The notes: generated from the letters alone by a model not told the origin. 64,000 bases of DNA from Escherichia coli (GCF_003334335.1 NZ_QOWQ01000006.1), one strand, 5' to 3'. Counted from the stretch's first letter, positions 31,730 through 38,730 are shown. Program-made: numbers and translations.

Positions 31730-32311
31730 TTAACCAAAAATTTCCACAAGATGCTTGCGATATTCTTCAGTATAGCGGGGAACATCAGGCATTTTTATCA
31801 CGTCATTAGCGATAAATGTCGGCAGCGGTTCCATACCGAGGAATTGGTTTGCTTTATGGAACGGCAGATACACACCGTCAACGCCAACGCCGTGGAAGAA
31901 CTGATCTTTTTCGGTGAAGGCTTCCATTGGTGCGTTCCAGGTCAGAGAAAGCATATATTTTTTGCCCTGTACCAGGCCGCCGGAACCGTATTTTTTCGAC
32001 GGATCTTTGCGGGTACGACCATCGCTGGCATACAGCGTCCCGTGACCTTCGGTGAATACATCATCAATGTATTTTTTCACTGTCCACGGCGCGCCCATCC
32101 ACCAGCCTGGCATCTGCCAGATCACCACATCAGCCCAGAGAAAGTTTTGTACTTCCGCTTTGACATCGTAGTCGCTGTCGGCGCGAACGATGCGGACATC
32201 ATGCCCAAGGTCGCGCAGTGTGCCATCCGCGACTTCGGTCAGGGTGTCGTTCAGTTGACCATTGGAGTGGGCGAATTTTTTCGCGCCGTTGATAATCAGG
32301 ATGTTGCTCAT
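31730..32311 (-). CDS. mdaB: NADPH:quinone oxidoreductase MdaB
   Basis: 193 aa flavodoxin-like protein. Confidence 0.9.
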   Translation of the reverse strand: MSNILIINGAKKFAHSNGQLNDTLTEVADGTLRDLGHDVRIVRADSDYDVKAEVQNFLWADVVIWQMPGWWMGAPWTVKKYIDDVFTEGHGTLYASDGRTRKDPSKKYGSGGLVQGKKYMLSLTWNAPMEAFTEKDQFFHGVGVDGVYLPFHKANQFLGMEPLPTFIANDVIKMPDVPRYTEEYRKHLVEIFG

Positions 32312-32629
32312 TTTTTAACCTCAAGGTGAGACGTTTGCCGACTATAGTACGTCACAGAGCGGTACGGTGAAATTAGCAAAATGTGCAAAGTCTTTTGCGA
32401 ATTTAGCAAAAGTCTGATCTTACTCTGACTCACCGATGCAGGATAAATATTTTCTGAAAATGACAATACTGATAGCCATTCCTCATAATTCTTACTCGCA
32501 CCGGAATAATTTACACGTTTGGTTCGGTTTTTTTGGGGATTGATAATATGGCTTTGAATAAGTAAAAGATGAAAGTATCAACGTGTCATGTTGATAATTA
32601 TAAATGGATTTTTATGAGCGTACTGATAT

Positions 32630-35164: not shown

Positions 35165-35557
35165 ATGAAAAAATTCGCAGCAGTAATCGCAGTAATGGCC
35201 CTGTGCAGCGCACCGGTGATGGCAGCAGAGCAGGGCGGTTTTTCTGGCCCATCGGCAACGCAAAGTCAGGCCGGAGGATTCCAGGGGCCGAACGGCAGCG
35301 TAACGACTGTAGAAAGCGCAAAATCCCTGCGTGACGACACCTGGGTAACCCTGCGCGGCAATATCGTTGAACGCATCTCTGACGATCTCTACGTGTTCAA
35401 AGATGCCAGCGGTACTATCAATGTTGATATCGACCACAAACGCTGGAACGGCGTGACGGTGACGCCGAAAGATACGGTTGAGATTCAGGGTGAAGTCGAT
35501 AAAGACTGGAATTCTGTTGAAATTGACGTCAAACAGATCCGCAAAGTAAATCCGTAA
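35165..35557 (+). CDS. ygiW: periplasmic OB-fold (BOF) stress protein YgiW
   Basis: 130 aa from ATG at 35165 with signal peptide; divergent from qseBC. Confidence 0.8.
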   Translation: MKKFAAVIAVMALCSAPVMAAEQGGFSGPSATQSQAGGFQGPNGSVTTVESAKSLRDDTWVTLRGNIVERISDDLYVFKDASGTINVDIDHKRWNGVTVTPKDTVEIQGEVDKDWNSVEIDVKQIRKVNP

Positions 35558-35609
35558 TTGTTACCGCTCCCGGGACGCGTTCCCGGGAATAATTTCGCAG
35601 GGAGGCAAA

Positions 35610-36092
35610 ATGACAAACCTGACACTGGATGTAAACATTATCGATTTCCCATCAATACCTGTGGCGATGTTGCCGCACCGCTGTAGCCCTGAATTGCTCA
35701 ACTACAGCGTGGCGAAATTTATCATGTGGCGTAAAGAGACGGGGCTTTCTCCTGTTAACCAAAGCCAGACTTTTGGCGTCGCCTGGGACGACCCTGCCAC
35801 CACCGCACCGGAAGCGTTTCGCTTTGATATCTGCGGCAGCGTTAGCGAACCGATTCCCGATAATCGTTATGGTGTGAGCAATGGTGAACTTACCGGTGGA
35901 CGTTATGCCGTGGCCCGCCACGTTGGCGAGCTGGACGATATTTCACACACGGTATGGGGCATCATTCGCCACTGGCTGCCTGCAAGCGGCGAGAAAATGC
36001 GTAAAGCACCGATTCTGTTTCACTACACCAATCTTGCCGGAGGGGTGACAGAGCAGCGACTGGAAACGGATGTTTATGTGCCGTTGGCGTGA
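35610..36092 (+). CDS. ygiV: GyrI-like effector-binding domain protein (putative transcriptional regulator)
   Basis: 160 aa; synteny next to mqsRA. Confidence 0.75.
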   Translation: MTNLTLDVNIIDFPSIPVAMLPHRCSPELLNYSVAKFIMWRKETGLSPVNQSQTFGVAWDDPATTAPEAFRFDICGSVSEPIPDNRYGVSNGELTGGRYAVARHVGELDDISHTVWGIIRHWLPASGEKMRKAPILFHYTNLAGGVTEQRLETDVYVPLA

Positions 36093-36222
36093 TGCCTGAC
36101 TCCAGCTTCCCTTATAAATTCCTGCTTCAAACTGGCGCTACTAATGCGCCACTTTCTTATATGGTCAATCACTTTCCTTAAAGAATACGTTTTGTGTGGT
36201 CACTATCTCCGTACATCTAACT

Positions 36223-36268
36223 AACCTTTTAGGTGCTTTTTCATTGCTGTAATTAACCTTTTAGGTTA
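36223..36268 (+). promoter_or_regulatory. mqsRA operator: two palindromes (AACCTTTTAGGT and TAACCTTTTAGGTTA)
   Basis: Perfect palindromes at 36223-36234 and 36254-36268, 30-75 bp upstream of the mqsR ATG. Confidence 0.75.
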
Positions 36269-36296
36269 TAACTAAAGTAACAGGGAGGCGGGGGTT

Positions 36297-36593
36297 ATGG
36301 AAAAACGCACACCACATACACGTTTGAGTCAGGTTAAAAAACTTGTCAATGCCGGGCAAGTTCGTACAACACGTAGTGCCCTGTTAAATGCAGATGAGTT
36401 AGGTTTGGATTTTGATGGTATGTGTAATGTTATCATTGGATTATCAGAGAGCGACTTTTATAAAAGCATGACCACCTACTCTGATCATACTATCTGGCAG
36501 GATGTTTACAGACCCAGGCTTGTTACAGGCCAGGTTTATCTTAAAATTACGGTAATTCATGACGTACTGATCGTCTCGTTTAAGGAGAAGTAA
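36297..36593 (+). CDS. mqsR: type II toxin MqsR (mRNA interferase)
   Basis: 98 aa starting MEKRTPHTRLSQVKKLV; toxin precedes antitoxin. Confidence 0.9.
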   Translation: MEKRTPHTRLSQVKKLVNAGQVRTTRSALLNADELGLDFDGMCNVIIGLSESDFYKSMTTYSDHTIWQDVYRPRLVTGQVYLKITVIHDVLIVSFKEK

Positions 36594-36594
36594 T

Positions 36595-36990
36595 ATGAAA
36601 TGTCCGGTTTGCCACCAGGGAGAAATGGTTTCTGGCATTAAAGATATTCCATACACCTTCCGTGGACGAAAAACAGTATTGAAAGGTATCCACGGTTTAT
36701 ATTGTGTCCATTGCGAAGAGAGCATCATGAATAAAGAAGAGTCAGATGCTTTCATGGCGCAAGTAAAGGCATTTCGGGCTTCGGTGAATGCCGAAACAGT
36801 GGCACCTGAATTTATAGTGAAGGTTCGAAAAAAGCTCTCTCTTACCCAAAAAGAGGCAAGCGAAATTTTTGGGGGAGGTGTAAATGCGTTTTCGCGTTAC
36901 GAAAAAGGCAATGCCCAACCTCATCCTTCCACAATCAAACTTTTACGTGTTCTGGATAAGCATCCAGAACTATTGAATGAAATCCGTTAA
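36595..36990 (+). CDS. mqsA: type II antitoxin / transcriptional regulator MqsA
   Basis: 131 aa with N-terminal zinc-binding CxxC...CxxC (MKCPVCHQGEM...YCVHCEES) and C-terminal HTH-XRE domain; starts 1 nt after the mqsR stop. Confidence 0.9.
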   Translation: MKCPVCHQGEMVSGIKDIPYTFRGRKTVLKGIHGLYCVHCEESIMNKEESDAFMAQVKAFRASVNAETVAPEFIVKVRKKLSLTQKEASEIFGGGVNAFSRYEKGNAQPHPSTIKLLRVLDKHPELLNEIR

Positions 36991-37122
36991 TTAATGGAAA
37001 AGCGGGGGCAACTCGCTTTTTTCTTTACCGGAGTGTGAGCCAAATCACTCGCGATAAGTTTGAGCGAACAATGCCACAGGCGTATTGTTGTTGGGCTTAT
37101 AATTTCTCCGGTAAGGAATACC

Positions 37123-38730
37123 ATGTATACGCGAAATTTATTATGGCTGGTCAGCCTGGTAAGTGCGGCTCCTCTCTACGCTGCTGACGTTCCCGCCAAC
37201 ACACCGCTCGCCCCGCAACAAGTCTTTCGTTACAACAATCATAGCGACCCAGGTACGCTCGACCCGCAAAAGGTGGAGGAGAATACTGCCGCGCAGATTG
37301 TGCTGGATCTGTTTGAAGGTCTGGTATGGATGGACGGTGAAGGCCAGGTGCAGCCCGCTCAGGCTGAACGCTGGGAGATACTGGACGGCGGCAAGCGCTA
37401 TATTTTCCATCTGCGTAGCGGTTTGCAGTGGTCCGACGGTCAGCCTCTGACGGCAGAGGATTTTGTCCTCGGCTGGCAGCGCGCGGTTGACCCGAAAACG
37501 GCAAGCCCTTTTGCTGGCTATCTGGCACAGGCGCACATTAACAATGCCGCAGCTATTGTTGCGGGTAAAGCAGATGTTACATCGCTGGGTGTCAAAGCGA
37601 CGGATGATCGTACTCTTGAAGTTACGCTTGAGCAGCCGGTTCCTTGGTTCACGACGATGCTCGCCTGGCCGACGCTGTTCCCGGTTCCTCATCATGTCAT
37701 TGCTAAACATGGCGATAGCTGGAGTAAGCCAGAGAACATGGTTTACAACGGTGCCTTTGTGCTTGATCAGTGGGTAGTTAACGAAAAGATTACTGCACGC
37801 AAAAATCCAAAGTACCGCGATGCGCAACATACAGTATTGCAACAGGTTGAGTATCTGGCGCTAGATAATTCGGTCACCGGCTATAACCGCTATCGCGCGG
37901 GAGAGGTCGATCTCACCTGGGTTCCGGCGCAGCAAATTCCCGCCATTGAAAAATCACTGCCTGGCGAGCTACGAATTATTCCGCGTCTGAACAGCGAATA
38001 TTACAACTTCAACCTTGAGAAACCGCCATTTAACGATGTGCGAGTGCGTCGGGCGCTATATCTTACGGTTGATCGACAGCTTATTGCGCAAAAGGTACTG
38101 GGGTTGAGAACGCCCGCAACCACGCTGACGCCGCCAGAGGTAAAAGGCTTTAGCGCGACGACGTTCGATGAACTGCAAAAGCCAATGAGTGAGCGCGTCG
38201 CGATGGCAAAAGCCTTGCTGAAACAGGCGGGATACGACGCCTCTCATCCGCTACGCTTTGAGCTGTTCTACAACAAGTACGATCTGCATGAAAAGACCGC
38301 GATAGCGTTGTCTTCCGAATGGAAAAAATGGCTGGGTGCACAGGTGACGCTGCGCACAATGGAGTGGAAAACCTATCTTGATGCCCGACGAGCCGGTGAT
38401 TTCATGCTGTCTCGGCAGTCGTGGGATGCGACGTACAATGATGCTTCCAGCTTCCTGAACACGCTCAAAAGCGATAGTGAAGAAAACGTCGGTCACTGGA
38501 AAAATGCGCAGTATGACGCCTTACTAAACCAGGCCACGCAGATCACTGATGCGACAAAGCGTAATGCGTTGTATCAGCAGGCAGAAGTGATCATCAACCA
38601 ACAGGCACCGCTGATTCCTATCTACTATCAGCCGTTAATCAAACTGCTTAAACCCTACGTTGGCGGTTTTCCGCTGCATAATCCCCAGGATTATGTCTAC
38701 AGCAAAGAGTTGTATATCAAGGCACATTGA
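37123..38730 (+). CDS. ygiS: periplasmic solute-binding protein, ABC family 5 (orphan)
   Basis: 535 aa from ATG at 37123 with signal peptide (MYTRNLLWLVSLVSAAPLYA); no adjacent permease genes. Confidence 0.8.
   Translation: MYTRNLLWLVSLVSAAPLYAADVPANTPLAPQQVFRYNNHSDPGTLDPQKVEENTAAQIVLDLFEGLVWMDGEGQVQPAQAERWEILDGGKRYIFHLRSGLQWSDGQPLTAEDFVLGWQRAVDPKTASPFAGYLAQAHINNAAAIVAGKADVTSLGVKATDDRTLEVTLEQPVPWFTTMLAWPTLFPVPHHVIAKHGDSWSKPENMVYNGAFVLDQWVVNEKITARKNPKYRDAQHTVLQQVEYLALDNSVTGYNRYRAGEVDLTWVPAQQIPAIEKSLPGELRIIPRLNSEYYNFNLEKPPFNDVRVRRALYLTVDRQLIAQKVLGLRTPATTLTPPEVKGFSATTFDELQKPMSERVAMAKALLKQAGYDASHPLRFELFYNKYDLHEKTAIALSSEWKKWLGAQVTLRTMEWKTYLDARRAGDFMLSRQSWDATYNDASSFLNTLKSDSEENVGHWKNAQYDALLNQATQITDATKRNALYQQAEVIINQQAPLIPIYYQPLIKLLKPYVGGFPLHNPQDYVYSKELYIKAH

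Follow-up and report, generated by a model that had tools for sequence, protein, structure and literature searches.

MqsR and MqsA of Escherichia coli form one of the best-characterised type II toxin-antitoxin systems, since structures are available for both proteins, for their complex and for MqsA on its operator, and the promoters have been mapped. MqsR cuts RNA at 5'-GC(U/A) sites as a ribosome-independent RNase; Lys56 and Tyr81 are essential for its catalysis, and MqsA inhibits it sterically by blocking the binding of the RNA substrate (PMC9636575). The roles of the catalytic residues, including Gln68 and Lys96, have been described as well (PMC9636575; PMC5422877). MqsA also binds the DNA sequence 5'-AACCT(N)3AGGTT-3', two copies of which are present in p-mqsRA, and both of them were occupied in EMSA (PMC4894380). 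Autorepression of the operon promoter, pRA, has been reported, deletion of mqsRA relieves the repression of pRA, and two constitutive promoters of mqsA, pA1 and pA2, lie within the mqsR ORF (PMC6918082). MqsR releases MqsA from DNA, and no co-repression takes place (PMC6918082; PMC5422877). The physiological role of the system is disputed (PMC6918082 versus PMC4894380).

The MqsR/MqsA pair of Pseudomonas putida KT2440 (PP_4205/PP_4204) resembles that of E. coli in that the toxin gene comes first, ACCT-N3-AGGT is bound by MqsA, and MqsR abolishes this DNA binding (PMC5422877). The two P. putida proteins share 58% and 45% identity with their E. coli counterparts, and unlike E. coli, which has two operators flanking the -35 element, P. 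putida has one 17-bp palindrome over the mqsR ribosome-binding site (PMC5422877). HigB/HigA-type modules share with mqsRA the reverse gene order, an RNase toxin of the RelE fold and an antitoxin with an XRE-type helix-turn-helix (HTH); the C-terminal domain of MqsA (residues 63-130) finds Vibrio cholerae HigA-2 (5JAA) as a weak match (E 4.6e-4). They differ from mqsRA in that MqsA carries an N-terminal zinc-ribbon domain for toxin binding, and in that MqsR is ribosome-independent and does not act as a co-repressor (PMC9636575, PMC6918082).

The window, that is, the whole 64-kb stretch of E. coli DNA analysed here, contains a locus at 36223-36990 that is, with hardly any room for doubt, the chromosomal mqsR-mqsA (ygiU-ygiT, b3022-b3021) type II toxin-antitoxin operon. 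An initial annotation made from the sequence alone had proposed such a module, and this proposal is borne out by proteins that are 100% identical to solved structures, by matches to the corresponding Pfam families and by RefSeq, which labels the same DNA mqsR/mqsA across thousands of E. coli genomes. The order described there, with a toxin of 98 aa followed after 1 nt by an antitoxin of 131 aa, is exactly that of the DNA, in which base 36594 alone separates the stop codon of mqsR from the ATG of mqsA. The layout is that of a type II system, namely two small, adjacent and co-oriented genes with operators for the antitoxin in their own promoter. The gene directly upstream, in the same orientation, is the GyrI-like ygiV (35610-36092, plus strand; PF06445, E 1.7e-36), as had been claimed. 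The locus is also AT-rich relative to its neighbours, as had been stated, with a GC content of 41.1% (36093-37021) against 50.7% for the whole window; taken 300 bp at a time, GC is 38-43% across mqsRA and 52-58% in ygiV and ygiS. An antisense ORF of 103 aa (36444-36755, minus strand) was rejected as spurious, being devoid of support and overlapping both genes.

The MG1655 counterparts are b3022 (mqsR) and b3021 (mqsA), flanked by ygiV and ygiS, and position x of the window corresponds to MG1655 position 3204841 - x on the opposite strand. K-12 encodes the same proteins in the same order, again with 1 nt between the genes, and shares both operators and the neighbouring genes on either side. The cassette that holds the operon has no mismatch to MG1655, and only 4 SNPs (34506, 36040, 37701 and 38774) occur in the 9 kb compared around it, from which the source would seem to be a very close relative or a derivative of K-12 and not MG1655 itself. 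The mqsR-mqsA locus and its MqsA operators were thus previously known and extensively characterised, and there is nothing new in their identification; what the comparison does illustrate is that a reading from sequence alone can correctly recognise a toxin-antitoxin module together with its operators.

The toxin gene mqsR (b3022) occupies 36297-36593 on the plus strand, preceded by a Shine-Dalgarno sequence, GGGAGG (36283-36288, plus strand), which as read from the sequence lies 8 nt before the ATG. Its product, an endoribonuclease of the RelE fold, is 100% identical over the full length to chain B of PDB entry 3HI2, a co-crystal of exactly these toxin and antitoxin sequences. It matches the Pfam family MqsR_toxin (PF15723) with an E-value of 6.1e-35, residues 5-97 aligning to positions 1-95 of the 95-position model; among the NCBIfam models, none matches MqsR. 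The residues K56, Q68, Y81 and K96 are all present in the translation, and K56, Y81 and K96 are invariant among 11 aligned MqsR sequences. The published RNase activity and growth arrest were obtained with the identical sequence (PMC9636575). Given the specificity of the toxin, the operon could be thought to avoid its own cleavage sites, and this idea was rejected. GCT occurs once in mqsR, against 5.5 occurrences expected from the window frequency without correction and 3.5 expected in shuffles of cassette composition, of which a fraction of 0.13 lie at or below the observed count. The whole mqsRA mRNA has 5 against 8.9 expected (fraction of shuffles at or below, 0.11), so that the deficit is not significant after correction for composition, and GCA is, if anything, enriched.

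The antitoxin and repressor gene mqsA (ygiT, b3021) extends from 36595 to 36990 on the plus strand, and its Shine-Dalgarno sequence, AAGGAG (36582-36587, plus strand), is contained in the last bases of mqsR, 7 nt ahead of the ATG. MqsA is identical (100%, full length) to MqsA/YgiT in PDB entries 2KZ8, 3GN5 and 3O9X, the last of which is the MqsA-DNA co-crystal. It matches PF15731 from position 1 to 131 of 131 (E 8e-56), HTH_3 at residues 76-117 (E 8e-4), and the NCBIfam models TIGR03830 (146.7 bits, curated cut-off 61.8) and TIGR03831 (43.7 bits, cut-off 20.2). Both family searches that had been suggested as a check on the module therefore returned their matches. The N-terminal Cys4 zinc domain contains C3, C6, C37 and C40, and the C-terminal XRE-type HTH contains the DNA-contacting N97 and R101; all six residues are invariant in 13 of 13 MqsA sequences.

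Upstream of mqsR lie two operator sites for MqsA. The distal one, ACCT-TTT-AGGT (36224-36234), has arms of only 4 nt because the leading A at 36223 is unpaired, standing opposite the G at 36235. The proximal one, TAACCT-TTT-AGGTTA (36254-36268), has arms of 6 nt around an ACCT-N3-AGGT core at 36256-36266. The initial annotation had described two perfect palindromes here, AACCTTTTAGGT and TAACCTTTTAGGTTA. Both strings are present where they were placed, the former at 36223-36234 and again within the second site at 36255-36266, the latter at 36254-36268; the word perfect does not hold, as each string differs from its reverse complement. Each site is instead an inverted repeat (ACCT/AGGT and TAACCT/AGGTTA) flanking a non-palindromic TTT spacer. 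The scan motif that had been recommended, ACCT(N)4AGGT, likewise fails, with no match in the 64-kb window; since the spacer is 3 nt, the motif has to be ACCT(N)3AGGT, and this fixes the form to be used in genome-wide scans. Extended to a 15-mer (36222-36236), the distal site differs from the proximal one at 2 positions, and the exact 15-mer TAACCT-N3-AGGTTA occurs once in the window.

ACCT-N3-AGGT has just two matches in the 64 kb, neither of them more than 75 bp from the start of mqsR. An interrupted palindrome of 11 bases can arise randomly, and shuffled versions of the 64 kb contain 0.44 matches on average, with two or more in 9 of 100 shuffles; on such grounds it might be held that ORFs and palindromes alike arose by chance and that no functional module exists. 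We regard this as a negligible prospect. Both proteins are identical to crystallised ones, their Pfam E-values are those given above, and distant orthologous loci carry the operator motif at the corresponding position, so that protein identities, family matches and recurrence in orthologues together refute it. Chance does not explain the placement of both operators near the start of mqsR. They lie 29-73 bp upstream of the gene with their centres 32 bp apart, a distance equal to that in the published coordinates, and both are the published MqsA binding sites (PMC4894380). A search of Rfam at E <= 1 over 35500-37500 found nothing, and the operator region folded as RNA is unremarkable (z -1.4); therefore, the palindromes are to be seen as protein-binding sites in DNA and not as RNA structure.

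The operators are closely interlocked with the putative elements of pRA, for which we propose the hexamers TTGCTG at 36244-36249 as -35, read from the sequence, and TATAAC at 36267-36272 as -10 (both plus strand), the latter guided also by comparison with orthologues, which repeat the layout of TTGC(T/C)A, 17 nt with the operator, and TAnnnT. The 17-nt spacer between the two hexamers is filled by the proximal operator, the last TA of which also opens the -10 hexamer. A simple promoter scan did not return pRA because it demands a T at the end of the -10 hexamer, which TATAAC lacks. The sole promoter-like site in the scanned interval 36000-37200 was a sigma-70-like TTGTTA-16-TAAAAT at 36520-36547 (plus strand), inside mqsR, which is likely to be pA1 and to transcribe mqsA alone. 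If 36520-36547 is indeed pA1, the reported distances (a TSS 8 nt after pA1, a second TSS 111 nt upstream, and pA2 8 nt upstream of the latter; PMC6918082) lead to a candidate pA2 -10 element, TATCAT at 36431-36436 (plus strand), with a TGt in front that recalls an extended -10. Downstream of mqsA, an intrinsic terminator of the operon at 36996-37022 (plus strand) has an 11-bp stem, a 5-nt loop and a T-run (-12.8 kcal/mol, z -3.0). At the other end, a G+C-rich hairpin, TGGCGC-N7-GCGCCA with a T-rich tail (36133-36151, plus strand; -10.9 kcal/mol, z -3.4), lies 40 bp downstream of the stop codon of ygiV; listed by the same scan as a terminator-like site, it is absent from strains devoid of the cassette and is possibly a terminator that would insulate mqsRA from ygiV read-through.

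A mechanism for the locus can be proposed in which RNase specificity, DNA binding, autoregulation and internal promoters are taken from the literature, and protein identities, operators, orthologue conservation, cassette boundaries and presence/absence from the present analysis. MqsR, as a small endoribonuclease, arrests translation by cutting mRNA, and the N-terminal zinc domain of MqsA binds MqsR and keeps the RNA substrate out. According to the literature, the C-terminal HTH dimer binds both operators. With the proximal operator overlapping the predicted -10 and the distal one about three helical turns further upstream, the two would face the same side of the helix. Given this position of the operators over the promoter, MqsA occupancy would block RNA polymerase and thereby repress the operon, the occlusion itself being what we infer. 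MqsR does not act as a co-repressor, and displaces MqsA from the DNA. Because mqsR precedes mqsA, additional antitoxin is supplied by the constitutive promoters inside mqsR. The whole is a self-contained, low-GC unit carried by only part of the species.

The mqsRA cassette (36095-37021) is a low-GC segment of about 927 bp between ygiV and ygiS that contains its own promoter, operators, both genes, the terminator, which ends at its right edge, and, inside its left end, the hairpin described above. It is present in 2283 of 5426 complete E. coli genomes (42%), and the remaining 58% do not have it; most of these match only 37022-37060. The empty site of O157:H7 reads ygiV-TGAtg/gggaa/tctttacc-ygiS, and since it has 5 bp at this place, the roughly 927 bp of 36095-37021 replace 5 bp. 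The contiguous empty-site form was found in 1755 genomes. At the cassette junctions, no target-site duplications or terminal inverted repeats were seen, and no mobility genes flank the cassette; with neither mobility genes nor a target-site duplication, insertion and deletion are indistinguishable here.

The interval between ygiV and parC (36095-38730 in the window) exists in at least three structural alleles, ygiV-mqsRA-ygiS-parC (2283), ygiV-ygiS-parC (1755) and a form without ygiS in which parC follows ygiV directly (L016; for example NZ_CP196743.1). The gene ygiS is said to be an MqsR target in deoxycholate tolerance, and these alleles bear on that disputed link. IS1 splits mqsR in strain 203740 and lies between mqsA and ygiS in strain CP52E (cases H1, NZ_CP025913.1, and L017, 2788-3485). 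An apparent plasmid copy in E. coli strain PN43 (L015, NZ_MG591698.1, 353 kb) was rejected as evidence of plasmid transfer. This record holds ygiZ-qseCB-ygiWV-mqsRA-ygiS-parC in chromosomal order, and because the whole chromosomal neighbourhood, including the essential parC, is aboard, it is probably a piece of the chromosome, or else a replicon with the wrong label, and not a true plasmid.

The low GC content, the patchy distribution and the frequent plasmid orthologues fit a horizontally acquired accessory module, in line with the scepticism about a physiological role expressed in PMC6918082. The presence/absence data, with the cassette in 42% of complete genomes, an empty site that is clean, and one more allele from which ygiS is missing too, form a background to the dispute between core regulator and selfish element. 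Three views of the biological role were weighed. According to the first, which is compatible with that mechanism and which we consider to have an even chance of being right, mqsRA is mainly a selfish, addictive and horizontally acquired accessory element with no integrated regulatory role in E. coli. The distribution just described, the GC content of 41% against 51% for the window, and a promoter and terminator held within 927 bp all agree with this. So do the plasmid orthologues, which occur in many genera (97 records), often beside ArdA, replication or transposase genes, and the existence of copies with IS1 insertions or a frameshifted toxin. In addition, no effect of mqsRA on stress, on biofilm or on the rpoS, csgD and cspD promoters was found in one study (PMC6918082). 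On the other hand, neither flanking mobility genes nor a target-site duplication was seen, which leaves insertion and deletion indistinguishable, and phenotypes have been reported by other laboratories (PMC4894380, PMC10846083).

The second view is that MqsA is also a global regulator, repressing further promoters with palindromes like those of mqsRA (rpoS, csgD and cspD) and thereby linking stress and biofilm formation, and that MqsR tunes the neighbouring ygiS. EMSA with p-csgD and changes in transcripts (PMC4894380), as well as palindromes at algU and other P. putida genes (PMC5422877), speak for it, yet the regulation of csgD, cspD and rpoS was not reproduced at near-native levels of MqsA (PMC6918082), and the absence of MqsA from 58% of complete E. 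coli genomes would be odd for a core global regulator. The window itself offers one site of this kind, ACCT-TG-AGGT at 32318-32327, with an N2 spacer as at csgD; it is the sole N2 match in the window. This inverted repeat lies over the ribosome-binding site of a minus-strand gene (31730-32311) which, from its K-12 position, we take to be mdaB, 6 nt upstream of the start and overlapping the Shine-Dalgarno sequence (cACCTTGAGGTtaaaaaATG). However, chance alone would place a core motif of 8 bases roughly once in 64 kb, which leaves single matches with little evidential value, and the site at mdaB may well be one of these. On balance, we consider a global regulatory role unlikely.

Accessory distribution and low GC are typical of defence genes, and the third view is that infection frees MqsR and thereby leads to dormancy, making mqsRA a phage-defence system. 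A preprint reports phage inhibition by MqsR/MqsA together with restriction-modification systems (10.1101/2023.02.25.529695; also PMC7438911). Against this stand the neighbours of the cassette, ygiV and ygiS, with no adjoining defence genes, and the outcome with PADLOC, by which membership in a defence system was rejected, as MqsR had no match and MqsA only weak, HTH-level matches to RmrA. A defence role is conceivable, and we regard it as doubtful.

For the comparison of orthologous loci, 12 plasmid loci encoding MqsA homologues of 32-67% identity were used (31.4 kb in total; the P. asiatica locus is cut at the start of the record). The same arrangement of two genes and operator is found in them. 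The motif AACC-N5-GGTT has 11 sites in the 31.4 kb, whereas shuffles averaged 0.44 and never exceeded 4; the 11 are distributed over 9 of the 12 loci, and every one lies just upstream of the mqsR operon. The absence of palindromes from orthologous loci, which had been named as grounds for abandoning the proposal, is thus contradicted. The genera with the motif are Rahnella, Pectobacterium, Azotobacter, Herbaspirillum, Rhodanobacter, Mycetohabitans, Ralstonia and Legionella. Rahnella, Pectobacterium and Legionella have paired sites 31-32 bp apart, like E. coli, and Azotobacter, Herbaspirillum, Rhodanobacter, Mycetohabitans and Ralstonia have one full site with an upstream half-site adjoining the -35 element. 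Degenerate operators occur in Pandoraea (TACC-N5-GGTC) and Vibrio (ACCCT-TAA-AGGGT), and upstream of the Xanthomonas locus, which encodes the most distant homologue, no operator motif was found.

A further feature concerns the start of the toxin gene. In the Herbaspirillum, Rhodanobacter, Azotobacter, Pandoraea, Mycetohabitans and Ralstonia orthologues (L006, L007, L005, L008, L009 and L010; at about 870-905), mqsR starts some 5-7 nt after an operator-overlapping -10-like hexamer and has no Shine-Dalgarno sequence, and this suggests that the toxin mRNA may be leaderless in these loci. E. coli mqsR differs from them in having a leader of about 17 nt with GGGAGG. If true, a leaderless toxin mRNA would be a built-in limit on toxin output in an operon in which the toxin comes first. 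More broadly, mqsRA might travel as a fixed promoter-operator design, with a -35 TTGCnn, a 17-nt spacer filled by the operator and a -10 TAnnnT sharing its TA with the operator arm, leaderless in some orthologues and occurring in E. coli among at least three ygiV-parC alleles. We offer this combined picture tentatively, as a possibility; neither the promoter-operator design nor the alleles were found stated in the mqsRA literature consulted for comparison.

Two of the plasmid loci depart from the two-gene layout. In that of Pectobacterium versatile (L004, 587-898), two operators 31 bp apart are followed by an extra ORF of 75 aa (671-898), which ends 4 nt before mqsR, seemingly forming a three-gene operon. 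In the Azotobacter salinestris plasmid (L005, about 900-1200), a frameshift late in mqsR has put the conserved C-terminal motif VLIVSFKEL into another frame, and mqsA and the operator are intact, so that MqsA looks like an orphan antitoxin or repressor there.
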